A stretch of DNA of 62,622 bases, counting the filler. It is 19 parts of 19 records of this genome, joined end to end, with 100 filler letters (N's around TTAATTAATTAA, not from the genome) between each part and the next. Parts side by side here need not be neighbours in the genome. Positions count along the whole stretch, not along the records: positions 33,810 to 37,007 come from SRR16133337_2096; 18 more parts are not named here. One strand, 5' to 3'. A program made the position numbers and the translations under genes. Positions 2,657-58,779 of the stretch are shown here, one piece after another (position 1 is the first letter of the stretch; each line of letters begins with the position of its first letter). The notes under the pieces are model-generated. The model saw only the letters and a program-made list of their open reading frames with translations, was not told the DNA's origin and searched no databases.

Positions 2657-4952
2657 CTGATCTCGAGCATCTAAATTTGCGTTTAATTCGATAAGTCGTT
2701 TTACAATATCTCTACAACTTCTTCTCACGGCCTCATGTAGTAGAGACGATCTATCCTAAAAAGCAAAGTGTGTCAATCATAAAAAAATACTATTTATTGT
2801 GTCATTATTGAACGTTGTTCCTCATCATTTGTTTTCGAGTGGGCTCTTAGCTTACGAAACACATCCAAGCCTTCTTAATTCTCATGTTTTGTGCTAAAAC
2901 CTTTTCCGTTCTACTCTCAAGTATTTTTTCTATTTTATCCTGCATAAACCAAACAAATAAATTTTTGGGCTCGAATTTTTACAGTGCGTTTGACAACACT
3001 TTTGGGTTCACAAGACTTTTTTTTTAGGTTCAGAAAGTCAAGCGAAAAATCAAAAACAATTATGGCAAGAAACAATTAATAGCACTATAAGTGAATTCAG
3101 ACGTAATGTGTATGCAAAAATAAAATAAATGTGCTATGTTACAAATAACGGATAGTTTCAAGTTATTTCGTTTATTGAAGCCACAATTTTCTACGGAAAA
3201 GTAAGTCGCTGTGCTTTATTTTTCAGTGAAATATTTTTTAAAAGAATCACGAACAAATTATTTTTGTAAATGCTATCTGTTCTATTTTTCAATGTAAAAA
3301 GCGCTGTGTAGTTACTGCGAATTATTCTACAAATGTATTTGTGAGGCCAAAATATAATTGTGGTCCTTACCGCAGTTACAACAGTCAAGGAAGCTCCTCT
3401 TTCCACAAGAAAGTCAAACATTTTAATATCACAATTTAAAATGGAGAAATGAATGACATGTTCGTCCGAATTTGCCTTGTCGTTTATGTCGGCGTCTGCA
3501 TCTAATAAAGTCTCCGCGACAGATTGGCTATTCGATTTAGCTGCCATTAAAATTGAACTGGTACCAGCCTGAAAAAAAAGAAGAAAACAAAATTGTGAAA
3601 TGTGTTTTCGAGAAAATAAAATAAACACCACACACAAAATCGTGGCATACGCTAAACTTGAAAAGACAAAACAGTAAGGAATGTCAGCTGTGTTGTGTGA
3701 ATTTCGGGACTTTTAAAAAAATATTGTGATTTTTACAAAAGTTTCAGTTCCCAAAAATTCATATTGGCAGGTGTGATTCACTTGGATTGTTTATTCAAAA
3801 TTTGTACAATTTCTCCGTGAATGCGTGATACAGGGTGAATACGTACAAATATCTGCCAAAACGAAAACATTGTTTTGAATTAAGTACATTCAAATTCCGC
3901 AGGATAAAATAACGGCTTATAGCCTCATACAGTAGTTCATGCATTTTCTTTTTGGTGTATAAATACAGCAAAGCGAGAGCATGATGTCACCCAACTGTTT
4001 AAAATCCATTTGTTTTCAAAAGAAAAACTGATCTATTTTGGTAATTTTATTTAAAGAGAAGTAGTGTGCATGCAATTAAGCTCATCACAAGATTATCATT
4101 TTGTTTTGGCGAATTCAAAAGGACACTTTCTGGCTTCAGAACAAATAAAAACAAAAATTGTCTATCAACCACTAAACATAAACATTCAAATTTGTTGCCA
4201 TTTATAAAAATACGCTTTGCACATAGATGTATCCAATCAAACACTTAACATAGAAAAAATTGAAACTTTTGTTGAAATTACACATGTGTTATTTCTTACA
4301 CCGTCTCGTGCGTGTATATCAGCTCCGTGGTTTATTAATAATTCAACTATTTCTTTGTTTTTGGAAGTCACTGCCAGAATCAAAGGCGTTTCTTTGTGCT
4401 AAATAAAAGACAAAACAATAAGAAATAGTACAAAGTACAAACTATTTCTTGCTTTATTTAGAAAAAAAAACAAACCTACTTCAATCAATCTACATTATTT
4501 TTATTTCACTCTTTCCTACTTTAAAGTGAAATAATATGGCAAAAACTGAGTTTTTGCAGCAGCTAGTTAAAAAGAAATACAAACCCCAAACACATTGCAG
4601 GGAAGTAAAATATGTGCGTGTTATTTTACGTTTACATCAAACTTTTCAGACAAATTTTGATAAAGATGGCGCTATTCAACACTCTAAGTGAACGCTTCTT
4701 GAGAACCTTATTGAGAGTGGTAATAAAAATTAATCCAGTTTGAAATTCTTGCAGGGGACTGATAATTTTCGACCATATACATATATTATTTCACCTGCAG
4801 TACGTGAAATTATACAAATTACAATTCGTTTAGTCATATTCTTTTTTAACACCTACTTTTCCTCTCGCCTCGATATGAGCACCATTATCAATTAACAGCT
4901 CAGTCACGTCTTTGTTTCCACGTACAGAGTAAAGTAATGGCGTCATGCCATC
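2657..4952 (-). CDS. Eukaryotic ankyrin-repeat protein, partial, four exons (4857-4952, 4300-4398, 3371-3568, 2657-2755)
   Basis: All exons are AG/GT-bounded and in phase 0. They translate to DGMTPLLYSVRGNKDVTELLIDNGAHIEARGK; HKETPLILAVTSKNKEIVELLINHGADIHARDG; AGTSSILMAAK...LVERGASLTVVTA; DRSSLLHEAVRRSCRDIVKRLIELNANLDARDQ, each matching the ankyrin consensus. Confidence 0.9.
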
Positions 4953-5056
4953 CTATNNNNNNNNNNNNNNNNNNNNNNNNNNNNNNNNNNNNNNNNNNNN
5001 TTAATTAATTAANNNNNNNNNNNNNNNNNNNNNNNNNNNNNNNNNNNNNNNNNNNN

Positions 5057-5086
5057 CAACAATTCAACAATTCAACAATTCAACAA
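5057..5086. repeat. 8-bp tandem repeat (CAACAATT)n at contig end
   Basis: Almost four units. Related CCACAATT units occur at 21686-21717. Confidence 0.85.
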
Positions 5087-5091
5087 AGCTA

Positions 5092-6054
5092 TTAGGATGG
5101 AGTCTCTTTTAATAAGTCAATAATTTGAGTTGCCAATTCACCACCAATTCTATCTTGAGCCTCTTCTGTTGCCGCTCCAATATGAGGCGTTAAAGAGATT
5201 TTAGGATTCATCAATATTTGTACTGGAGGTCTGGGTTCTGTTTCGAATACATCCAAAGCAGCACCCCCCAATTTACCACTGTTTAAAGCAGTAATCAAAG
5301 CAACTTCATCAATTACACCACCACGAGCAGCATTCACAATAAAAGCCCCCTTTTTCATCGCCTCGATTTCTTTGGATCCAATTACATACGCATCTTGAGC
5401 AGGTACATGTAAAGTTAAGAAATCAGCTTTTTTCAACACTTCTTCTTTGGAAGTAGTCGTTACTTTCAGATCTATAGATTGACCATCAAAAAAATCTAAA
5501 GTAAGGGTAGCAGACTCCATAAAAGGGTCAAAAGCAACTACTCTCATTCCCAATCTTAAAGCAACAGTAGCAGTGGCTTGACCAATACGTCCAAAACCTA
5601 AAATACCTAGTGTTTTCCCTTTTAATTCAATACCTGCACCATATGTTTTTTTTAGGATTTTAAAGTTTGCTTCCCCTTCTAAAGGCATGCTTCTGTTGGA
5701 ATTATTTAAAAAGCGAACCAACCCCGATAAATGTGCAAAGACCAATTCAGCAACGGAATGTGAAGATGCTGCAGGGGTATTGATAACATGAACCCCTTTA
5801 TCTATAGCATATTGTACATCAATATTATCCATACCCACACCACCACGACCAATAATTTTGAGAGAAGGACAAGCATCAATTAGTTCTTGACGAACGGTTG
5901 TTGCACTTCTTACTAAAATGACATCAATATTTTCTTTATTGATGTAGTTTTCCAATTGTTCTTGGGCAACGGTCGTTAAAATTACTTCAAAACCAGCAGT
6001 CTCTAAAGCCGTTACACCACTTTGTGCCAATCCGTCATTTGCTAATACTTTCAT
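5092..6054 (-). CDS. serA: D-3-phosphoglycerate dehydrogenase (D-2-hydroxyacid dehydrogenase family)
   Basis: GRGGVGMDNID, GFGRIG (NAD binding), NAARGG and TPHIGAAT motifs; directly downstream of serC. Confidence 0.92.
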   Translation of the reverse strand: MKVLANDGLAQSGVTALETAGFEVILTTVAQEQLENYINKENIDVILVRSATTVRQELIDACPSLKIIGRGGVGMDNIDVQYAIDKGVHVINTPAASSHSVAELVFAHLSGLVRFLNNSNRSMPLEGEANFKILKKTYGAGIELKGKTLGILGFGRIGQATATVALRLGMRVVAFDPFMESATLTLDFFDGQSIDLKVTTTSKEEVLKKADFLTLHVPAQDAYVIGSKEIEAMKKGAFIVNAARGGVIDEVALITALNSGKLGGAALDVFETEPRPPVQILMNPKISLTPHIGAATEEAQDRIGGELATQIIDLLKETPS

Positions 6055-6111
6055 TGTGTTTGATTTTTATTGAAACTTTATATATCCAGCTCACCATCAA
6101 ATTCTCCATTC

Positions 6112-7173
6112 TTATTTGTTTAAATCTTGCATTGCTTTTACTAAAACTTGCACACTTTCTAGGGGTAATGCATTGTAAATACTTGCTCTATAGCCCCCCA
6201 CATCTCGATGCCCCTTTAAGGCACAGATCCCAGCTTCTAAACAGATTGTATCAAATTTTTCTTCTAACGATTGATCTGTTAAATTGAAGGTAACGTTCAT
6301 TTTAGAACGATCTTCTCTTGCGGCAAATCCTACGAAAAAGGGGTTGTTGTCAATTTCGTTGTACAATAAAGTTGCTTTTTCAGTATTTGCTTTTTCAATC
6401 GCTGTGATGCCTCCTTTTCCTTTTAACCATTCTAAGGTTAACATAGAAACGTATACGGCAAATACAGGAGGCGTATTAAACATACTCTCTTTGCTTGCAT
6501 GTACTTGGTAGTCTAACATAGAAGGGATTTTTCTTCCAGATTTCCCTAATACTTCCTCTTTTACAATGACTAAAGTAGTCCCTGCGGGTCCCATATTTTT
6601 TTGAGCACCTGCATAAACCACGTCAAATTGACGATAGTCTAATTTTCTTGAAAAAATATCAGAACTCATATCCACCACTTTTAAAAGTCCTTCCCCAGGG
6701 AATTCGTTCATCTGTGTTCCAAAAATGGTATTGTTAGAGGTGTAGTGAATATAATCTGCCTCCGAAGGAATTTCAAATCCTTTAGGAATGTAGTTGTATC
6801 CTTTATCTTTGGAAGAAGCGACCACCAAAGTTTCTCCAAAATTTTTAGCTTCTTTGATAGCTTTGGAACTCCAAGCACCAGTATCTAAATAAGCTGCTTT
6901 ACCCCCGACTTTTAACAAGTTGTAAGGAACCATTAAGAATTCTAAACTGGCACCCCCTTGTACAAATAATACCGAATATCCTTCAGGTAATTCTAACAAT
7001 TCTTTTACCAGTGCCTGTGCGTTATTCATGACAGCTATAAAATCTTTACTACGATGAGAAATTTCAAGAAGTGATAAATTTAAGTCATTAAAATTTACAA
7101 TGGCTTCACTTGCTTTCTGTAAAACTTCTTGAGGTAAAATGGAAGGTCCTGCACTAAAATTATGTTTTTTCAT
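6112..7173 (-). CDS. serC: Phosphoserine aminotransferase
   Basis: HNFSAGP, SHRS, AGAQKNMGPAG (PLP lysine), NTPP and GHRDVGGYRASIYNA motifs. Confidence 0.97.
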   Translation of the reverse strand: MKKHNFSAGPSILPQEVLQKASEAIVNFNDLNLSLLEISHRSKDFIAVMNNAQALVKELLELPEGYSVLFVQGGASLEFLMVPYNLLKVGGKAAYLDTGAWSSKAIKEAKNFGETLVVASSKDKGYNYIPKGFEIPSEADYIHYTSNNTIFGTQMNEFPGEGLLKVVDMSSDIFSRKLDYRQFDVVYAGAQKNMGPAGTTLVIVKEEVLGKSGRKIPSMLDYQVHASKESMFNTPPVFAVYVSMLTLEWLKGKGGITAIEKANTEKATLLYNEIDNNPFFVGFAAREDRSKMNVTFNLTDQSLEEKFDTICLEAGICALKGHRDVGGYRASIYNALPLESVQVLVKAMQDLNK

Positions 7174-8515: not shown

Positions 8516-8698
8516 NNNNNNNNNNNNNNNNNNNNNNNNNNNNNNNNNNNNNNNNNNNNTTAATTAATTAANNNNNNNNNNNNNNNNNNNNNNNNNNNNN
8601 NNNNNNNNNNNNNNNAAAGTGGTGTTTTGAAGAATTTTCATAACAAATCAGCGAAATAGAACAAAATAAAACAAAACACATAAAATATGTTATTTTAC

Positions 8699-22438: not shown

Positions 22439-22598
22439 ACTGCCTACATTGGTTCCTGTTTGATAAACTCAATGCGATCCCATTAAAAAGGATGAGTCAT
22501 AGTTGTAAAAGCGCGCCGGCTTGATTCGGATACTTGAGCTACTAGTTAGTCCTAAACTTGTTATTTGGGAGTTTATACAAACCAAACTAATGTAGGTT
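22439..22598 (+). ncRNA. ssrS: 6S RNA (Flavobacteria type)
   Basis: Lies between zapA and rny. The ends pair as a long rod (CCTACATTGGTT...ATAAACTC with GAGTTTAT...AACTAATGTAGG). Boundaries are approximate. Confidence 0.8.
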
Positions 22599-31197: not shown

Positions 31198-31954
31198 NNN
31201 NNNNNNNNNNNNNNNNNNNNNNNNNNNNNNNNNNNNNNNNNTTAATTAATTAANNNNNNNNNNNNNNNNNNNNNNNNNNNNNNNNNNNNNNNNNNNNAAA
31301 TAACTTGAGATGTGTTGTGAACGCCCCTTCGTTGCCAAAAGGTTGGAAAAGAATTTCTCGAATAAATATCCCATATGTTGATTGAAATACAAAACTCGGA
31401 TATAAATACAAAACCTGCTATAATTTGCGCAGCCGAAATAATAACGAATCTCAAAGGTGAAAAGCTGCTATAGAAAAAGTGTAATGAATGTTCCTGAAAA
31501 CTGTTGTGGAATTATTGCAAATCACTTATATTTGAATGATATATAGTCATGAAGTCTATTTCACTTTTCATATTATTTCACAAGATTTCACAGAAATATT
31601 TTTTTATACCCAATTTGAAGAAAACACTTTCATCAGTAAACACCCTCCACCCACATTCCACCTTTCCCTATAAAAAATGGATTAAAATGTATTCATCAAC
31701 TAAAACTCACCACTCACAAGCACTCCAATCCAATCCCTCTCGAATTTCAAAAATTTAGACACCTGAAGAGTCACATCTAAGAAAATTGTCATGTTTTGAA
31801 AAAATCATGGCTAGGAAGTAATGCCTTAGGGTGTTTTCAAAAACGTCAATTTTTTCAAAATCATCAAACACATGTCTATGTGTGCTGGAGTTTCTTGATG
31901 CATCACACCTTCTTATACCAATAAAAATATTTGCAATATACATTATGTATTTAG

Positions 31955-33266: not shown

Positions 33267-33809
33267 GTACATTACGACATATACTATTTTTTGTATTGTG
33301 GGGACAAACATTGTACTTTTGTTTTATGATTTTTAAATGTGAGAGGCTCCTAGTTTTATACCGAAACAAATCAAAATATATAAATGTGGATTTCAAAATT
33401 GTATACTTTTCAAAACATAAAAATTGTTATTAAAAAACAAAAAACATCTTACAGGAAAGTTGAACTGAAAATTCACGTTGTTTGCTACAAGTAACGTATA
33501 TTTTCAACAAAACGGAGCTCCAAATTGCAATTAGTGCAGCTCTTCTAAAAAGAAAGTTTTTTGCTAAGAATATAAAAAAATGAGGGATTTTAATGTTTTT
33601 CTTTTCAAAATAAATTGTGAGAGTGAACTTACGTCAATACGTGTGAATTTTATTTCACAAAGAGCTTCTTACACGCTGTTTTCGAACATGTAAAATTTAT
33701 TTATTTATTNNNNNNNNNNNNNNNNNNNNNNNNNNNNNNNNNNNNNNNNNNNNTTAATTAATTAANNNNNNNNNNNNNNNNNNNNNNNNNNNNNNNNNNN
33801 NNNNNNNNN

Positions 33810-34189
33810 TAATCGGCAAAGAAGTAGAACAAGCTTTAAGAGACGCTATAGAAGGAACAAATGTCGTCATCAATGAATTTACCGTTACCACTCAAATAAC
33901 TCCGAAAAAAGGATTGCCCTACCATCAATGGTTTATTGAGTTTGAAAACGAACCCGAAGATATGGATGCTTTTGCAACAAAAATTGACCTCTCAATGCAA
34001 GATCAAAACATTAATTATTTCGATTTAATTAAAGGAAAAGTATTGAGACCTCTTATTATTTATAAAGTGAACAAAGGAGGTTTTCATACGTATATGAAAT
34101 CAATTGGGAAGTTTGGAGGTCAAAATAAAATTCCGAAATTGTCTGACAGTCGTGAAATTGCAGAGGTATTAGAAGGGTTTATGATTTAA
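33810..34189 (+). CDS. GH3 (auxin-responsive promoter) family acyl-adenylate-forming protein, 3' part
   Basis: IGKEVEQAL...EFTV...GLPYHQWFIEF...YMKSIGKFGGQNKIPKLSDSR; 5' part cut by the contig start. Confidence 0.88.
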
Positions 34190-34352
34190 TAATTTTAGCT
34201 AATTTATTTTTGTTTGTAACAAGCCCCTATTTTCAAGCATCACATCGCTAGGGTTTTAAATAAAAAGTGAAAAATTAATAAAAAAGGTCAACCCTAATCA
34301 GAGAAGTACACAAAATGAAAAGTGAAAAGACTGCAAGATAACCAAACAGATA

Positions 34353-34390
34353 GGCAATAAGTAAAAGCTTATAGCCCATAGTTGTGTAAC
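34353..34390 (+). other. Putative left recombination site of a cassette
   Basis: Imperfect inverted repeat GGCAATAAG-taaaag-CTTATAGCC followed by the core GTTGTGTAAC, 16 bp before the first ATG. Confidence 0.4.
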
Positions 34391-34406
34391 ATACCGACCA
34401 AAACTT

Positions 34407-34943
34407 ATGAACGATAGAAAAATAATATTTGTTGGAGGAATTCATGGAGTTGGAAAAGGAACTGTTTGTAAGGAAATAGCCGACAAATTTGGTTTCCAGC
34501 ATCTATCTGCAAGTGAGGTATTAAAATGGAATGAAATAAGTGATTTAAAAAATAAAAAAGTACAGAATTTTGCAACTACCCAAGATAGATTACTTAACAA
34601 TCTGAATCAAATAATAGAACCAAACAAAATGTATTTGCTTGATGGACATTTTACATTATTGAATTCAATTGGAGAGCCTGAAAAAATCGATGAATCGACT
34701 TTTGTAGGAATTCAACCAAATTCAATAATACTTCTGACTTGCGAACCTAAAATTATTTATGAAAGACTGAATCAAAGAGATAACTCGGTTTACGATTTAG
34801 ATATTCTCAAAAAAATGCAACAAATAGAGATTGAACACGCCAATCATATTTCACATAAATTAAAGATCCCTTTATTTACAGTTGTAAATGGCGATACAAT
34901 TTCAATACTTGACCATTTAAAAAATTATGAGAATATTAATTGA
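34407..34943 (+). CDS. P-loop nucleotide kinase (adenylate-kinase-like, AAA_17/18 type)
   Basis: Walker A GGIHGVGKGT, HLSASE, LLDGHF and lid region ERLNQRD. Confidence 0.85.
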   Translation: MNDRKIIFVGGIHGVGKGTVCKEIADKFGFQHLSASEVLKWNEISDLKNKKVQNFATTQDRLLNNLNQIIEPNKMYLLDGHFTLLNSIGEPEKIDESTFVGIQPNSIILLTCEPKIIYERLNQRDNSVYDLDILKKMQQIEIEHANHISHKLKIPLFTVVNGDTISILDHLKNYENIN

Positions 34944-36429
34944 TACAAACATAGTTATTCATCGTGAAGCAAGCCGAGTTGTAAACGAGGATATTGGATT
35001 GCTTTTCAACTGGCTTGACAGATTAAAATATGAGAAATGTATTCATCCACTTTCAATTGAAGAAATTTCTGGTCATCAAGATGAACAAGTTGTAAAAACA
35101 ATGAAAATTAAGATTGCCAACTACAATCTTTTGAAAACAGAATCGCCAGATGACCAATTAATTGCTCAAATAAGACAATCTGATAACTCACGTAATGACT
35201 TCATCGATACGAGTATTGTAAAAGAGGTTTACAATAACCGGATGGACTATTTGATAACTGAAGACAGAGGAATACACAGAAAAGCGAAATTTCTTAGTTG
35301 TGCTGAAAAAGTATTTAAAATAGATGCATTTTTAGAAAAATGTATTGCAGAAAATCCTGACTTAAAAAATTATCAAGTATTAGCTGTTAAGAAAGAATAT
35401 TTTGGCAACATCAATCTTGACGATAAATTTTTTAATTCATTCAAGCAAGACTACAAAGAGTTTGGAGATTGGTTTAATAGAAAAGCAGACAATGTCTCAT
35501 ACGTATGTATTACAGATGGAGATGTGAAAGCTTTTCTATATTTAAAACAAGAAGGTACTAATGAGATTTATAATGATATACAGCCTGTTTTTCCTCAAAA
35601 GAAAAGGTTAAAAATTGGCACTTTCAAGGTAACTTCAACGGGCTTTAAATTAGGAGAACGATTTCTAAAAGTAATTTTTGACAATGCACTTCAATATGAC
35701 GTAGAGGAAATTTATGTAACCATATTCGATAAAAGAGATGAACAATTAAGACTAATTTATTTACTCAAAGATTGGAGTTTTAAATATTGGGGAGAAAAAA
35801 CAACTGATGATGGCATTGAACAGGTCTTTGTTCGGGAATGTAAGCCAACACCCAATTTACAACAACCAAAACTGTCTTTTCCAGCTGTATCAAAAAATAC
35901 GTCAAAATGGATAGTTCCTATTTATCCCGAATATCATACGGAATTATTTCCTGATTCAATACTAAATAATGAGTCGCCACAAGATTTCATAGAGAATGAA
36001 CCATACCGAAATGCTATTAAAAAAGTGTATATCTCACGCTCCTACAATAGAGGTTTGAAAGGAGGAGATTTAGTACTGTTTTACAGAACCGGCGGTCATT
36101 ACGCTGGCGTAGTGTCAACCATCGGAGTAGTGGAAAACATTGTTACCGATATTCGAGATGAAAATCATTTCATTGAACTTTGTCGCAAAAGAAGTGTCTT
36201 TGATAATACAGAGCTAAAAAAATATTGGAATTGGAATAAAAATAATAGACCTTTTATCGTTAATTTTTTATACATTGACTCATTCCCAATGCCAAAAGTT
36301 AACTTAAAGAGATTGAGGGAATTAAATATAATACAAAATGCTCCACGAGGTTTTGAACCTTTGAGCAACGACAAATTTGAACAAATTTTAAAAGAAGCAA
36401 GAGCTAATGAAAGTTATATTATCGATTAA
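34927..36429 (+). CDS. PIN nuclease - GNAT acetyltransferase - PUA-like (EVE/ASCH) fusion protein
   Basis: PIN: ILIDTNIVI, DFIDTSI, YLITEDRGI. GNAT-like: LKIGTFKV...GFKLGERFLKVIFDNA...IYVTIF. PUA-like: IVPIYPEYH...KKVYIS...LKGGDLVLFY...TIGVVE. Confidence 0.8.
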   Translation: MRILIDTNIVIHREASRVVNEDIGLLFNWLDRLKYEKCIHPLSIEEISGHQDEQVVKTMKIKIANYNLLKTESPDDQLIAQIRQSDNSRNDFIDTSIVKEVYNNRMDYLITEDRGIHRKAKFLSCAEKVFKIDAFLEKCIAENPDLKNYQVLAVKKEYFGNINLDDKFFNSFKQDYKEFGDWFNRKADNVSYVCITDGDVKAFLYLKQEGTNEIYNDIQPVFPQKKRLKIGTFKVTSTGFKLGERFLKVIFDNALQYDVEEIYVTIFDKRDEQLRLIYLLKDWSFKYWGEKTTDDGIEQVFVRECKPTPNLQQPKLSFPAVSKNTSKWIVPIYPEYHTELFPDSILNNESPQDFIENEPYRNAIKKVYISRSYNRGLKGGDLVLFYRTGGHYAGVVSTIGVVENIVTDIRDENHFIELCRKRSVFDNTELKKYWNWNKNNRPFIVNFLYIDSFPMPKVNLKRLRELNIIQNAPRGFEPLSNDKFEQILKEARANESYIID

Positions 36430-36778
36430 ACCAGAGTTTGCAAACAAGATATTTAATGGAACAAAAAAGTTTGAATTTCGAAGAACGTTATTCAAAAACA
36501 AGGAAGTAAAAAACATAGTAGTTTATGCATCTGCACCAATTAGCAAAATAATCGGAGAATTCGAGATTGATAGTATTTTTCACGAAAATTTAAATATTCT
36601 TTGGAATCAAACATCAAAATTCTCTGGAATTTCTGAAGATTACTATACACAATATTTCCAAGGTAAAGATAGTGGTTATGCTATTAAAGTGAAGAATCCG
36701 AAAAAGTACGAAAAGGAACTTTGTATTAAACAGAATTTCGGCATCAATCCGCCACAGTCATTTGCTTATTTACGCTAA
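36407..36778 (+). CDS. Stand-alone ASCH domain protein
   Basis: ILSIKPEFANKIFNGTKKFEFRR (GxKxxExR signature), VVYASAP and PPQSFAYL. Confidence 0.9.
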   Translation: MKVILSIKPEFANKIFNGTKKFEFRRTLFKNKEVKNIVVYASAPISKIIGEFEIDSIFHENLNILWNQTSKFSGISEDYYTQYFQGKDSGYAIKVKNPKKYEKELCIKQNFGINPPQSFAYLR

Positions 36779-36783
36779 AGTAC

Positions 36784-36913
36784 GTTGTACAACGTATATA
36801 AAAAATAGCGGTTTTAAGTGCTTAAACGAATATGAGTTTTTATAAATTTAAAGTCTGTGTTTAACTGAAAAGTTAGTGCGTAAAATCCGCTACTTTTCAT
36901 ATACAAAGCCGTT
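36784..36913. repeat. attC-like imperfect palindrome (about 130 bp)
   Basis: Left arm AAC-GTATATAAAAAATAGCGGTTTTA pairs with right arm TAAAATCCGCTACTTTTCATATAC...GTT. It starts 5 bp after the ASCH stop codon. Confidence 0.7.
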
Positions 36914-36972
36914 TAAAACAAAAAATTTGAAAAGCTATTAAGATGAAATAGCTGTTTTATTAAATTTGAACA

Positions 36973-37007
36973 ATGAGTATAAAAGAAGTTCTTGCAATTC
37001 CATTTGC
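36973..37007 (+). CDS. Start of a probable second GH3-family gene (cut by the contig end)
   Basis: MSIKEVLAIPF resembles flavobacterial GH3 N-termini as I recall them; TAAATTTG element at 36961-36968. Only 11 codons are visible. Confidence 0.45.
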
Positions 37008-39126
37008 NNNNNNNNNNNNNNNNNNNNNNNNNNNNNNNNNNNNNNNNNNNNTTAATTAATTAANNNNNNNNNNNNNNNNNNNNNNNNNNNNNNNNNNNNN
37101 NNNNNNNGCTGTTTTTTTCTACCGGAACTTTGAATCTCCTCTTTCATTTCCACTCAACATATCCTGATGAAGTTTTAGAAGAGGGATATCATATTCAGAA
37201 CTGATTTCACTTGAATATTTGTTTTCAAAAGTTCATTTAATTCAAACTTTAGAACTAAATCGGTGATCAAAGAAAAAGTATTTGTTGCAAAATTTTTTTG
37301 GCAAATTCGTTCCCTAGCTTTTATGAAAATAATAACACAGTTTTTCTTCGCCGGACAAATTTGCTAATGCACCAAATTTGTTTTACTCCAACATATAGGG
37401 TGGCAGGGTATGAACCCTATCATGATTTACACGTCTCAGTGGTGGTTTCAAATGATTTTTTTTGTACATTTCAATTTCATTTTTCACTTTTCGTTTTTCA
37501 TTTGCCCACATTCTGGAGTTTCAGTTGTGTGATACCTTGAATTTTCAATTTTGGGTGGTAAAAGTACAACACAAATTAAAAGTATGGTAAAAATATACTG
37601 TTACACGTGCGAAAAAGCGTGAAAAAAGATGCAAAATTAATTTGACGCGAAAAGAATTTCACGTTTTCATTAAAATATTCAATATTTTCATCCATGTTTC
37701 CGTTACTGATTACACAGCCATGAAAAACATGAAGTGGTGGAGGTGATGTGGGAGTGGTATCAAGCATTTCGTTTTCACACGTTACTTGTGTAGGGAGGGT
37801 GTGTGGTGGAGTGGAAAGGGTGTAGTGTGGGAGGGATGGCCCCCGTAAGTTGATGAGCCATCTGATAAAAAAAAGTCGGTGTCACAAAATATTCTTTTGC
37901 AAGAAATTAATACTTTTGCAATTGAATGTGTCGAAAAGAGTTGAATAAATGTTTACCAAGAAAATAAAAAATAATCGCAAAATTATGTTTTTGTTTTTCA
38001 AAATGAACTTTGGGCTTGAATTTCATTTCAAAGGTCAAAATTATGAAACAAGTGCAATTGGTTACAGTTTTGAGTGTCTTGGCTTTGAACTAATAGTTAT
38101 TATTGTTGTGTGTGTTTTAGAGATCTTTGGCGTGAATGGTCTGTTTTGCTCATTGTCCTTGTGCTGTTTCTAATAACTGACTTTATGTTTTTGGGAGAGA
38201 CAACGTTTGTTTTTGATCCTTCATTGAAATCGTGGTCCGCAAAGACAGGCGTTAATAAGGTTGACTAGTGGCAGTGGATTGAGTTAATGGAGTGTGTTTT
38301 GCAAGATACCGGGGGAAAGAAGGCGCCTTTTTTTAATGTGAAGTTTGAGCAAAAACTCCTGTGTTCCGATTGTTGGACAAAACCTGAATATTTTCATTCT
38401 ATAAAAAGGATACATATATAAACGACAGTGTAATTAATTTTTGTTGTGTTGTTTTTAAGTTTTAACCGCGGGATTGAAATGAGTTTTCAACACACTAATT
38501 TTGGAAATTTTATAATTTTGCCGCAGTTGTTAAAATTTCGGGAGAACATAAAATTAGGGGTTTGTAGAAATAAAAGACTTCATGGTGCCACTCACAGCGA
38601 ACCCAAACCAAGTTCACCCGTGAAAGCTTCGTTCGGGTTCGCTGCATGTGACTAGCAATAATTTTTGCTATAGGTTTCCACCGTTCTATCCTCACACTAG
38701 GAAAAGCTGCTAGGGAAGAGAAAATTACAGAACTTATGGAAAATTTACTAAAAATACATCATTTTGAAATTGCATAAAGCTATTTTAGTGGAAATTCCAT
38801 GTTTTCACAATTCCTCAAGCTGTGAAACTTTAATTGGCAATTCAAAAAATCAAAGAAAATGTAACAAGTACGAACTAGAAACTTTAGAACGCGATTCTAA
38901 TTTTTTTGCTGAAATTCGTCAGCAGTGCATTTTTATGCAACATAAATCTCCTCCTACATACTATCACAATATTGTTGTGTCTTCAACAACTAGATCCAAA
39001 AATTATTCTAGATCTGTAGCTCAATAGTGTTGAGATTTTACAAACACATGTTTAATTCTAACTGTTACAAGCAGAAAACACAACAACGAAACGCAAACAC
39101 AATTTTTTATAAAAAAAGACACGTGT

Positions 39127-39538: not shown

Positions 39539-39555
39539 CGACGCTCTTCCGATCT
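39539..39555 (+). other. Illumina adapter remnant
   Basis: CGACGCTCTTCCGATCT is the 3' end of the TruSeq read-1 adapter. Confidence 0.97.
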
Positions 39556-39597
39556 TTATAATAATATAGTATATTTATATTTTTATAACAATAAAAC

Positions 39598-39668
39598 CAG
39601 TTAATGATTTAATGGTAAAATAATTACCTGATAAGTAATTTATAAAGGTTCGACTCCCTTTTAACTGA
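39598..39668 (+). tRNA. trnI: Mitochondrial tRNA-Ile (GAU)
   Basis: Acceptor stem CAGTTAA/TTAACTG; anticodon arm ATTAC-CTGATAA-GTAAT; T loop TTCGACT. Confidence 0.9.
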
Positions 39669-39669
39669 T

Positions 39670-41499
39670 ATATATATATATATATGAAATTCAATATGAT
39701 TATATATAATAATATTGTTAAGTATTATTATTATTTTAAGTTTAGTTAATAGTTTAAATACTAAATTTATGCTTTGACTTTTTTTAATTTCCTTCAACTT
39801 CCTTTTTATTTTAATTTTATGAAATTATTATATTACTTTTTGAACTGCTACTGTTACTATTAATAATACTATTAGTAATACTCAGCTATATTGAATATTT
39901 TTAAATACTCAATTTTATTATTGTTACTACTATATTTTATATTTTTTATTTTATTTTATTTTATTTGTTAATAAATTTTATTTAATAACTGCTATAGCTT
40001 ATCAACAACTAAGTTTATTAAAAATATTAATTTGAGTACAACTATATATATATTGACATTTTTTAATACTATTTCAATTTATTATGTATGCTATATATTT
40101 TTTATTAATTTTGAGCAATGCGCTATTTAGCTACAATACTTGAGAAATTACATCTTGAGGATTTAATCAAAACTTTTATACTATATCTACTAAACTAACT
40201 TATATAACTTCATTGCAATATTTATTTATTTTATTATCAATTTTTTTAACCCCTTTATCATTATTTAGTAATTGAAATGACTTAAAATTTAAAACGCTAA
40301 ATATTAAATTATTTTTATTAACTCTAACTACTTTAATTTTATTTTTAATTATAAGTTTTTCAACCTTTAATTTATTTATATTTATTATTATGTTTGAAAG
40401 TACCACACTCCCTTTATTTTTTTTAATTAACCTATTTGGTCATAGAGCTAAAAAATATCGAGCAGCCTGGTATCTATTCATTTATACACTTCTGGGTTCA
40501 ATTTTTTTACTAGGTAGTGTTATTTTAATTTATTATCAATATAAAACAGTAAATTTATTTGAAATTTTATTTAATTACCAATTTAATAATATTTCTTTTG
40601 AAAGATTTAAACTAATTTGACTTGGTTTATTCTTGGGTTTTGCTATAAAAATACCCATCGCCCCCTTCCATATGTGACTACCTGAAGCACACGTTGAAGC
40701 CCCTACAGCAGGCTCTATTTTACTAGCAGGGATTTTACTAAAATTAGGGGGCTACGGTATTATTTTTTTTATGCTACCCTTTTTCAATAATAATTATTTT
40801 TTACCTTTTATATTTACACTAACCATAGTTAGTATGGTATACTCTTCATTTTTACTGTTTAGGGAAACCCATTTAAAAAAAATTATCGCTTACTCCTCTA
40901 TAGTACATATGAATATAGGAGTTTTAGGCTTATTTTCAAATGCTACTGTAGGAATTTTAGGCGGAATTTTTATGATGTTTAGTCACGGTTTTATATCTGC
41001 CGGCCTATTTTATTGCGGAGGGGTGTTATTTAATAGATTTAAAAGCTATGACATTACTATTATTAAAAATTTAAGTAAGTCTATGCCTAAATTTGCATTT
41101 TTTTTTATTTTACTTATTTTTAGCAATATGGGGCTACCCTTAACTTCGGGATTTATTGGAGAATTTTTAATTTTAATAAGTTTTATTAAACAAACATATT
41201 TTATAACTTTAACATTATTAGGTGTTCTTTTACTAAATACTATTTATAATATCTTATTAGTATCTCGTATTCTATACGGCTATTTATTTTGGCCTACGGC
41301 TTTTAAATTTATTAAATTTCATAGATTAATTAGCAAAGTTTCTAATACTCCATGAATACCCTATAGTATTACCCAAGATATCAGTAGACTAGATTTTTTT
41401 TCCTTGAGTGTTCTGGGATTTTATTCTATTATATTTGGTATAATTCCTAATTTTTTATTAAATAGTTTTTATTTAGATTATTATTATAAATTGTTTTAA
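39670..41499 (+). CDS. nad4: Mitochondrial NADH dehydrogenase subunit 4 (TGA=Trp; start uncertain, ATA 39670 or ATG 39769)
   Basis: One continuous frame when TGA is read as Trp. Motifs [56 protein letters not shown], SHG and GLPLTSGFIGE; TAA at 41497-41499. Confidence 0.93.
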
Positions 41500-42218
41500 T
41501 TAATTATATAAATATATCTTTATATTATTTTTGTTATTTAACAAAATTAACTATTTTTACAACATTTTTTGTAGTTTTATTACATTTTTTAGTACCTCAA
41601 CTATTCTCACAGTTTACCTTTTACTATAACTATTATAATTACCATTTAAATTATTTAATTGAATTTAATATTACATATATAGCTAAAACAATGGGTATAC
41701 TGCACTTTACCTCTATGATACTCAAAGGGCATAAATTATTTTTATTTATTTGAATTTTTGGAAATTTTGGTGCTTATGTAGGTTTTATTACATCTTTTAA
41801 CGCTGATTGGGAAATATTATTTATTTGATCTTTTGCTATTTGTTTTTTAATTTACATATACTGAATTTCATTTTTTTTTGGCCAGCTATTTAATAAATGA
41901 ATTAATGACTATAAAATTCCCCTAACTGTAGGATTTATTTTAATTTTTTTTATTGAGCTTTTATCAATTATTATCCGAACATTTAGTTTAACCACAAGGT
42001 TAGCTATTAATACTTTTGCAGGAGCTCTATATCTAATTATTTTAAATAAACTAATCTTCGCAACAGCATTTTTTTCTCATTCTTTTTTTTTTAATTTGTT
42101 TGGGTATTTTATTATTAATTATTTAATTATTGTTATTATTTCTGAATTAATAAAAATTTCAGGGCAATGTTTATTATTTCTTGCTTTGTCTTTTTATTAT
42201 TTATCTGAATCAGAATGT
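41499..42218 (+). CDS. atp6: Mitochondrial ATP synthase subunit a, divergent, stop codon not reached
   Basis: Open with TGA=Trp; IELLSIIIRTFSLTTRLAINTFAG and SELIKISGQCLLF..LS..Y match Atp6. Start probably ATT or ATA. Missed by the ORF track. Confidence 0.85.
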
Positions 42219-57729: not shown

Positions 57730-58779
57730 CTAAAATGCGAAAAAGAAAACACAAAAATGTAAAGTGTCATTTTATACCACGCAATTGAATATTATTCATG
57801 TGTATTATTTTTCATTGCTAAAATAGAGTGTATGTATTGTTATTTATGTGTGTAAACGCAAAATGTGATTTACATGTCAACTGCGAGGAAAATTATTTAA
57901 ATTGTATGAGATTTGTGCACAATTACCATAATTCATATTTTTCAACTTCTAGAAATTAGGTTCTATTCAAGGGTGAGCTATTGACCTACACCTTTGAATA
58001 AGTATTAACCACGTGAATCAATATTGTGAATTACTTGTACTTGTAGCGTATGAATTAATCTATTTTGTGCAATTACTTGAGCAGTGAACAACTGAAAAAA
58101 ACCTTGAATATCAGCATACAATTTTGAAAATTTATATGACGAAAGACTTAACTGTCTCCACACGAAGCAAATAAGTTTCGAAAAACAAGGACAAGCGTGA
58201 AATTCCACATTTGCTTTATGTACAACTTAAAACCACATTCCACCTCGAATTATCACTCCAAAATATCATCAAGAGCCGTCTCTAAAACGTAGTAAAACAA
58301 ATTCTTGTAAAACTCTTTCAAAATCTCAATGTCACTCGTGCACCTCTAATTTTTCTAGACCCAATAAAAAGTTTTATTGGGATGTCAATTTCTTAACTGT
58401 ATTTTTCCTGATTACTTCTACGGGAATTTGAGCAAGAATTAACAAATTATTCGAAAAATATTTCTAATTTGGGGGAAAAATCTTGTTATCATTTTCAATG
58501 GTTTTCACTAAAAAAATCTTTAGTCGCAAATTCAGTTTTAAAATTCAAAAATACGAAAAAATGTGAAAAATGTAAAATTTTCCAACCCGACAAAACTCCT
58601 GAGTCCCCAAACAAAAATTTTCACGTGCCGACTCGACTTGTCGTTTTCNNNNNNNNNNNNNNNNNNNNNNNNNNNNNNNNNNNNNNNNNNNNTTAATTAA
58701 TTAANNNNNNNNNNNNNNNNNNNNNNNNNNNNNNNNNNNNNNNNNNNNGCATGACATCCAGACTGCATGACAAAAAAAC

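Follow-up and report, generated by a model that had tools for sequence, protein, structure and literature searches.

A known kinase, PIN-GNAT-PUA-like and ASCH gene set on a 2.4-kb mobile unit of Flavobacteriaceae

The window analysed here is a stretch of 62,622 nucleotides (positions 1-62622) made of 19 pieces of one genome's records, with 18 artificial spacers between them. One piece, SRR16133337_2096 (positions 33,810 to 37,007), carries three genes on the same strand, which encode a P-loop kinase, a 500-amino-acid protein with PIN, GNAT and PUA-like domains (hereafter protein A, and its homologues the A family) and a small ASCH protein. We compared this set with nine related loci (L001-L009, of which L008 is cut short). 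The parts of the gene set are listed below with the evidence for each in brackets; ORF stands for open reading frame and AF2 for an AlphaFold2 model, and positions count along the window.

34379-36793, plus strand: conserved DNA block, 79-81% identical to L001-L007, with unrelated flanks outside it (blastn)
34407-34943, plus strand: kinase gene, P-loop nucleoside monophosphate (NMP)-kinase-like, 178 amino acids (ORF; Pfam and profile matches)
34927-34943, plus strand: kinase/A overlap, 17 bp
34927-36429, plus strand: gene A, putative effector, PIN-GNAT-PUA(EVE/ASCH-like), 500 amino acids, equal to PDC-M11A (PADLOC PDLC04422; AF2)
34927-35370, plus strand: PIN domain, residues 1-148, acidic D6, E46, D94 and D113 (PIN-only model against VapC toxins)
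35374-35847, plus strand: GNAT domain, residues 150-307, conserved glycine loop G239 and G243 (VIA; NAA50 profile alignment)
35890-36411, plus strand: PUA-like domain, residues 322-495, EVE/ASCH-like (VIA against ZmASCH; THYN1 EVE match)
36407-36429, plus strand: A/ASCH overlap, 23 bp
36407-36778, plus strand: ASCH gene, 123 amino acids, equal to PDC-M11B, Glu-type octapeptide group (PADLOC PDLC04425; ZmASCH profile match)

An earlier note on this DNA had reported three same-strand ORFs overlapping by 17 and 23 bp, and both figures are exact. The order kinase, A, ASCH is the same in all seven complete close loci (7/7), and also in L008 as far as its sequence reaches, so the trio is not a chance arrangement. 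The kinase and A genes of L001 overlap by 4 bp, those of L002 by 17 bp. Between A and ASCH, the 23-bp overlap is retained in Flavobacteriaceae, in an E. coli phage and on a Pseudomonas plasmid, but one subfamily of Flavobacteriaceae (L014, 3018-3022; L015, 3021-3025) has a 3-nt spacer there instead, which means that the overlap is not obligatory.

This three-gene set is already known, being both catalogued and in print, and is of little weight as a discovery. Residues 1-499 of protein A cover positions 1-500 of the 501 in the PADLOC model PDLC04422 (E 3.5e-217); for the ASCH protein, residues 1-122 match PDLC04425 with E 2.7e-51. The PDC entries of PADLOC are candidates that are not known to have been tested. 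The combination of a (PIN)-GNAT-EVE gene and an ASCH gene, often with an AAA_17 protein, was described by Bell, Wolf and Koonin (2020; PMC7641849), who name Iyer et al. (2013) as the first to describe it and present these operons as putative toxin-antitoxin or virus-host conflict modules. The same three-gene set thus appears in Bell et al. (2020), in line with the remark in the earlier note that similar neighbourhoods had been noted computationally; by that note's own measure, a match to an already named system, the set is not new, since PADLOC lists the pair as PDC-M11. The full-length PADLOC matches, the domain calls from fold and profile searches, and the architecture given by Bell et al. 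make it almost certain that these genes are an ordinary and intact example of the (PIN)-GNAT-EVE + ASCH (+ AAA_17 kinase) family, which PADLOC carries as candidate PDC-M11.

The AF2 model of protein A, built on 80 family members, has a mean predicted local distance difference test (pLDDT) score of 91.2 and resolves three domains in the order PIN, GNAT and PUA-like. Pfam matches to protein A were sub-threshold only, with EVE at E 0.0026 (18.2 vs 23 bits) and PIN_3 at E 0.0062 (17.8 vs 27 bits). When the family members were matched one by one (n = 80), EVE was found in 22, PIN_3 in 21 and Acetyltransf_1 in 11, protein A not being among the 11. A search of PDB sequences with the whole A-family profile returned marginal matches only (NAA50, E 0.034; 2ar1, E 0.26).

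A PIN-only AF2 model (residues 1-148) reached a pLDDT of 81.9. Foldseek found no match to it at E<=0.001, and the PIN call is made on the Z-scores of the VIA structure comparisons and on the uniform identity of the matches. Against VapC11/VapC toxins the model gave Z 10.0, with a root-mean-square deviation (rmsd) of 3.5 over 126 aligned residues; ranks 1-12 were VapC, FitB and HARP proteins (Z 8.9-10.0, 121-136 aligned residues), and nearly all of the best 50 structural matches listed were PIN proteins. Residues D6-T7-N8, D94 and T111-E112-D113 are all present. Of 60 PIN-bearing rows of the family alignment, 51 keep D6, with the same number for D94 and for D113, and 50 have an acidic residue (E or D) at position 46. 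The domain is a putative metal-dependent RNase.

The GNAT domain aligned with Naa60 (5icv) in VIA at Z 14.4 (rmsd 2.9, 152 aligned residues), followed by about 45 more GNAT entries with Z of at least 12.9. Its glycines G239 and G243, each conserved in 75 of 80 rows, correspond in the profile alignment to the G-x-G in motif A of NAA50. The PUA-like domain aligned in VIA with ZmASCH, an ASCH protein of Zymomonas mobilis (Z 14.9, rmsd 2.3, 139 aligned residues), and the EVE domain of THYN1 (5j3e) was among its Foldseek matches at E 3.1e-4. An hhalign comparison of the ASCH and A families, itself of low confidence (probability 3.9%), shows no equivalent of the ASCH motif G-x-K-x-x-E-x-R in this C-terminal domain, a weak hint that would fit a reader and not a second eraser. 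The PUA-like domain is probably a reader, perhaps of a modified base.

The ASCH protein fell just under the Pfam ASCH threshold (19.2 vs 21.2 bits), and its family profile matched ZmASCH (5gus), the nearest solved relative, over its full length (E 2.5e-16, residues 4-122). Within the motif, G18, K20, E23 and R25 are invariant in 46/46 sequences, as are Y40 and S118, which align with Tyr47 and Ser128 of ZmASCH. A YqfB-type amidohydrolase (GKTR, with Thr in the octapeptide) was considered and rejected, position 23 being an invariant Glu. An unreviewed 2026 preprint (10.64898/2026.02.27.708502) distinguishes Thr-type from Glu-type ASCH subgroups and reports in-vitro removal of N4-acetylcytidine (ac4C) from tRNA by every one of the 19 ASCH proteins tested there, ZmASCH among them. 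The Lys/Glu dyad of the Glu-type octapeptide is given there as essential in TthASCH, EOLA1 and TRIP4, and the matching residues in the present ASCH protein are K20 and E23.

The kinase matched AAA_17 (1.6e-19), AAA_18 (6.5e-14) and ADK (1.9e-8) in Pfam, all above their cut-offs. Its family profile matched AK5 (9e-8), UMP/CMP kinase (2.5e-6) and also AK1 in the PDB, with E about 1e-7. In 40 homologues, G16-K17-G18 of the Walker A motif are invariant and T19 is present in at least 90%; D79-G80-H81 and R120/R124 are conserved too. PADLOC gave weak matches only, to VakA (2.1e-8) and PDC-M51B (4.2e-6). A housekeeping adk or cmk orthologue was rejected, every NCBIfam equivalog score lying far under its cut-off. 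The domain calls of the earlier note (a kinase, PIN-GNAT-PUA(EVE-like) and ASCH) are therefore right by fold and profile searches, and the features that it had read as intact, namely the kinase Walker A, the PIN acidic residues (DTN, D, TED), a GNAT-like core and the ASCH GxKxxExR motif, are each borne out by the conservation given above and, for the GNAT core, by the fold as well.

The gene set has a broad reach. Among 8000 candidates scored, 5801 proteins belonged to the A family at E<=0.001, as did 1869 representative clusters at the same threshold, and searches with the ASCH protein and the kinase returned 2388 and 531 matches. The A family extends through bacteria, archaea, plasmids and phages, and A and ASCH each have PHROG families. 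Records of plasmids (33) and of phages (16) contain homologues, each with less than 60% identity. One conjugative Pseudomonas plasmid carries, in this order, an ATP-binding protein, a GNAT-EVE protein and an ASCH protein, the first of which is a homologue of the kinase (32% identity, E 7e-24). Among closer relatives, proteins 86-90% identical to A occur in records named for eight genera. In the taxonomic family of one host, 8 of 301 sampled genomes contained a homologue (E<=1e-20, identities 27-89%). With flanks of 1.5 kb taken into account, ASCH came next after A in all eight of these loci (8/8) and the kinase was found in two (2/8); the kinase is an optional third component, dispensable for the family. 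L009 (59% identity) has only a PIN-less A and ASCH. A two-gene form was also seen in L013 (G250:C3, 1-4475), where it lies between two large genes whose N-terminal sequences look, by eye, like topoisomerase subunits.

At the DNA level, the loci resemble one another only across about 34379-36793, each having flanks unrelated to those of the others. The block of a Nonlabens metagenome-assembled genome (MAG) is 94% identical to that of an Algibacter genome over 2416 bp and 98% identical to that of an unclassified Flavobacteriaceae MAG. The conserved block is a discrete 2.4-kb mobile unit that moves between Flavobacteriaceae genera.

This pattern bears on whether the genes belong to a conflict system at all. 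They might instead be an accessory route for modification or turnover of the cell's own tRNA or rRNA (acetylation homeostasis), with the kinase serving nucleotide salvage. ASCH proteins like YqfB have a role in ac4C catabolism, hydrolysing N4-acetylcytidine, the kinase resembles adenylate and UMP-CMP kinases, and most copies in Flavobacteriaceae are surrounded by ordinary chromosomal genes, with no excess of defence genes in our comparison (see below), all of which would suit such a role. A cassette with so few carriers among the sampled family genomes, with unrelated flanks at every locus and near-identical DNA across genera, does not suit it; nor does the presence of the family in phages and on conjugative plasmids, where in one lambdoid phage a homologous pair occupies the slot next to cI. 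We regard a purely housekeeping function as very unlikely, and consider that the family probably acts in conflict or addiction.

One locus speaks to how the ASCH protein relates to its partner. L012 (G203:C36, 1149-3521) is chimeric, its kinase and A being 80% and 89% identical to those of the window, while its ASCH protein is 90% identical to that of L015 and only 61% identical to the window's; the A proteins of L012 and L015 share 50% identity. These identities indicate that ASCH modules are exchanged between A lineages only 50% identical. Such a swap is easier to explain if the partner works on a substrate common to both lineages than if it must fit a protein surface particular to one of them.

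The exchange is unusual for a co-evolving cognate interface, and so counts against a toxin-antitoxin or abortive-infection system in which ASCH is no eraser and either binds the effector directly, in the style of type II pairs, or regulates the operon as a nucleic-acid binder. The invariance of the catalytic-type residues K20, E23, R25, Y40 and S118 likewise suggests an enzyme. What speaks for binding or regulation comes from several quarters: the record of Escherichia phage PhiR47_2 calls the partner 'GevA antitoxin', several sources label homologues 'predicted transcriptional regulator', the PDB entry of ZmASCH is titled 'Helix-turn-helix domain-containing protein', and type II pairs are typically coupled tightly in translation. 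Bell et al. (PMC7641849) also suggest that ASCH may bind DNA and regulate expression, and mention fusions of helix-turn-helix and ASCH domains in alphaproteobacteria. A predicted complex of protein A and the ASCH protein scored 0.11 (mark 0.34) in a run made without family alignments, which counts neither for nor against direct binding. A purely binding or regulatory ASCH partner seems to us a rather unlikely account of the pair.

The account that we favour, tentatively and without thinking it probable, is a toxin-antitoxin-like module in which an acetyl-writing, RNA-targeting effector is opposed by an ASCH eraser. Protein A would be the effector. Its C-terminal PUA-like domain would dock it on RNA, most likely tRNA and possibly through a modified base; the GNAT domain would use acetyl-CoA to acylate that RNA, with cytidine N4 or the aminoacyl group as the most plausible sites; and the intact PIN domain would cut RNA. 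The overlapping, translationally coupled ASCH protein would counter the effector as an N-deacetylase through Lys20/Glu23, not by sequestration, and the NMP-kinase-like protein would be a dispensable accessory, perhaps a nucleotide-dependent regulator.

Different observations bear on different parts of this proposal. A toxin-antitoxin relationship is suggested by the labels in PhiR47_2 (GenBank PV340567.1), where a homologous pair on the same strand, directly after cI, is named GevT toxin and GevA antitoxin, together with the position of ASCH after A in all eight loci of the sampled family genomes and the kept 23-bp overlap. An enzymatic eraser is suggested by ZmASCH as nearest relative, the ac4C removal reported in the preprint, the invariant K20/E23 and the ASCH swap. 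That the effector is active is suggested by the intact, conserved state of the glycine loop in GNAT and of the four acidic residues in PIN.

A more detailed version can be put forward as a speculation that is rather unlikely, namely a reversible RNA-acetylation toxin-antitoxin system. Here the GNAT domain, guided by the PUA-like reader, would write ac4C, or a related acyl mark, at non-native tRNA positions, the fused PIN domain would then cut the marked RNA, ASCH would erase the mark, and the kinase would link the system to the nucleotide pool, so that phage-induced shifts in nucleotides or acetyl-CoA would trip the switch. If true, this would be the first toxin-antitoxin pair based on a writer and an eraser of RNA acetylation. 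The report of ac4C erasure by ASCH proteins and the interchangeable ASCH partners make it a testable idea, with an acetyl writer as toxin and an ASCH eraser as antitoxin. The family is still a worthwhile target, as it is very large and has a broad range.

Several points weigh against an acetyl-writing effector paired with an ASCH eraser. The nearest structures to the GNAT domain are protein N-terminal acetyltransferases, not nucleic-acid acetyltransferases. According to the preprint (10.64898/2026.02.27.708502), ZmASCH lowered ac4C in vitro only, and its expression in E. coli had no such effect. Kim et al. (2017, PMC5615036) reported weak, Mg-dependent cleavage of single-stranded RNA (ssRNA) by ZmASCH and no DNA cutting; by analogy, the ASCH partner could itself be a nuclease. 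Bell et al. (PMC7641849) stated that no such module had been characterised experimentally as of 2020, and the literature searched, which covered few subscription journals and no supplements, contained no experiment on a (PIN)-GNAT-EVE protein.

The gene neighbourhood adds to these points. We set 114 ORFs within 7 kb of the system, in 10 genomes and with the system's own genes excluded, against 124 control ORFs from same-size regions 60 kb away, using ORFs of at least 100 amino acids and PADLOC matches at E<=1e-10. There were 10 PADLOC families near the system and 26 in the control set, tallies that count families by their members and are not protein counts. These tallies show no excess of defence genes, and the defence-island enrichment of homologues that the earlier note had proposed looking for does not appear in this comparison. 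Within the near set, Mad3 was matched by five members and subtilase by two, both of which are probably generic matches, and the specific matches were those seen in the genome of L002. The control set included PDC-M49A/B and reverse-transcriptase-type models.

The defence-like neighbours, seen in L001, L002, L003, L005 and L009, come from ten proteins picked by eye out of all flank ORFs. L002 has an OLD-family ATPase-nuclease directly upstream of the cassette, and an HNH nuclease and a PDC-S07 NUDIX protein directly downstream. A SLATT_5 effector lies directly upstream in L005, a PD-Lambda-2_B-like protein is found in a flank of L003, and an HNH_5 nuclease in a flank of L009. In L001, a PHP-domain protein matching PDC-M49A (4158-6221, E 4.6e-288) lies 3.3 kb upstream of the cassette. 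A PDC-M49A/B pair with near-identical scores was also seen in one control region (among L030-L039), 60 kb from a cassette, which suggests that this candidate is common in these Flavobacteriaceae. The flanks of L006 and L007 were judged by eye to be ordinary. Most copies in this clade have ordinary genes around them and stand by themselves.

The nucleases beside the L002 cassette could also be taken to favour a DNA-directed system, in which the GNAT domain would acetylate a base in DNA and modified DNA would be read by the PUA-like and ASCH domains, alongside or in the manner of restriction-modification (R-M). Acetylation of DNA bases was proposed by Iyer et al. (2013), as told by Bell et al. 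(PMC7641849), who also report frequent linkage of PIN-GNAT-EVE genes to type I R-M and an ASCH-HsdS fusion. The THYN1 EVE domain that appeared among the fold matches was bound to 5-methylcytosine (5mC) DNA. Set against this, an intact PIN domain is typical of RNases, the ASCH relative of known structure is reported to have acted on ssRNA and tRNA and to have left DNA uncut, and no R-M gene adjoins the cassette in the Flavobacteriaceae loci scanned, the L002 HNH nuclease excepted. A DNA target therefore strikes us as quite improbable.

The proposal in the earlier note of a conflict module with writer, reader and eraser holds in part. Its core agrees with the inference of Bell et al. and with the preprint on ac4C removal by ASCH proteins. 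Its argument from genomic context does not stand, because that context was an artefact of how the window is assembled. The contig structure and the remaining features are as follows.

33710-33809, no strand: joint of N44, 12 bases and N44, at the end of the previous contig (N-run scan, joint sequence)
33810-37007, no strand: contig bearing the three-gene set, 3198 bp (N-spacer joints at both ends)
33812-34189, plus strand: 3' end of a GH3-family gene, cut off by the contig end (Pfam GH3_C, 2e-16)
37008-37107, no strand: joint closing the trio's contig (N-run scan, joint sequence)
2314-2413, 4957-5056, 8516-8615 and onwards to 58649-58748, no strand: further joints
22467-22574: 6S-Flavo RNA, on another piece of the window (Rfam RF01685, 91 bits)
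39598-39668: tRNA-Ile(GAT), on the AT-rich piece 39539-42218
39715-41499: 594-amino-acid ORF of Proton_antipo_M type (NADH-dehydrogenase type), open only with 12 TGA codons read as Trp

The whole window holds 36 runs of 44 N, paired as 18 pairs. The two joints either side of the trio read N44-TTAATTAATTAA-N44, and the remaining 16 joints have the same geometry. The 12-base TTAATTAATTAA is an artificial spacer with stops in all frames that joins contigs, so gene order across the joints is meaningless and, with the trio on a 3198-bp contig, everything past 33810-37007 belongs to other contigs. The earlier note had described the genes as inserted in a housekeeping context with cassette-like ends; these joints flank the 3198-bp piece and account for that impression. 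A real cassette boundary does exist, seen only by cross-genome comparison, at about 34379 to 36793 (blastn). Windows made of spacer-joined contigs can therefore yield spurious genomic context. ORFs that span joints are also artefacts, such as the one at 31242-31454, whose translation includes a run of X.

On its own contig, the end of the GH3-family gene is the sole genuine neighbour of the three-gene set, and tblastn found no match to it at E<=1e-5 in the related loci L001-L009. No terminal repeats flank the three genes on the contig (33810-37007). Promoter-like sites on the contig (10, with 14.7 expected) and terminator-like sites (1, with 1.2 expected) are not above chance. Elsewhere in the window, the 6S-Flavo RNA is consistent with most of the record coming from Flavobacteriia. 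The piece at 39539-42218 is very AT-rich (GC content 0.16-0.25) and, with its tRNA and its ORF, looks like a mitochondrial fragment, or another fragment with TGA read as Trp, mixed into a Flavobacteriaceae-like record.

Set beside known systems, the gene set is closest in form to catalogued candidates. Both models of PDC-M11, M11A and M11B, are matched end to end by the second and third genes; PDC-M11 is a two-gene model, whereas here a kinase gene precedes and overlaps the pair. The operons described by Bell et al. (PMC7641849) share the identical domain order, the ASCH partner and the optional AAA_17 protein. The PIN-bearing forms in that account lie near type I R-M and CRISPR, whereas the Flavobacteriaceae copies mostly stand alone.

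Among characterised proteins, VapC-type PIN toxins (VapBC, FitAB) resemble the N-terminal domain of protein A in its PIN fold and four acidic residues. They differ in that here the PIN domain is fused to GNAT and PUA-like domains, and the partner is an ASCH protein, with no VapB-like antitoxin gene. AtaT and TacT are GNAT toxins that acetylate aminoacyl-tRNA. With these toxins, and with TmcA and YqfB, the writer and the eraser of ac4C, the set shares a GNAT fold linked to an RNA-binding module together with an ASCH protein, and by analogy the cassette may work like AtaT/TacT or TmcA/YqfB. The searches gave no specific link to AtaT, TacT or TmcA in sequence or fold, TmcA appearing only as a Foldseek row of low TM (template modelling) score, and YqfB has a Thr-type ASCH octapeptide whereas the partner here is of the Glu type.

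ZmASCH (PDB 5GUQ/5GUS, PMC5615036) corresponds to the ASCH partner in Tyr47 and Ser128, the residues involved in RNA binding and cleavage that match Y40 and S118, while its Lys53 aligns one position off, at S46-K47. Its reported activities, ssRNA cleavage and in-vitro ac4C removal, are those of the protein on its own. The pair in PhiR47_2 is a counterpart of the two-gene core. The literature searched yielded no paper behind the names GevT and GevA, and a preprint on sister phages never names Gev. Its GNAT-EVE protein is 37% identical to protein A over residues 153-499, its ASCH protein is 46% identical to the window's, and the two genes have the same 23-bp overlap; it is a phage form without the PIN domain and the kinase, placed directly after the cI repressor gene.

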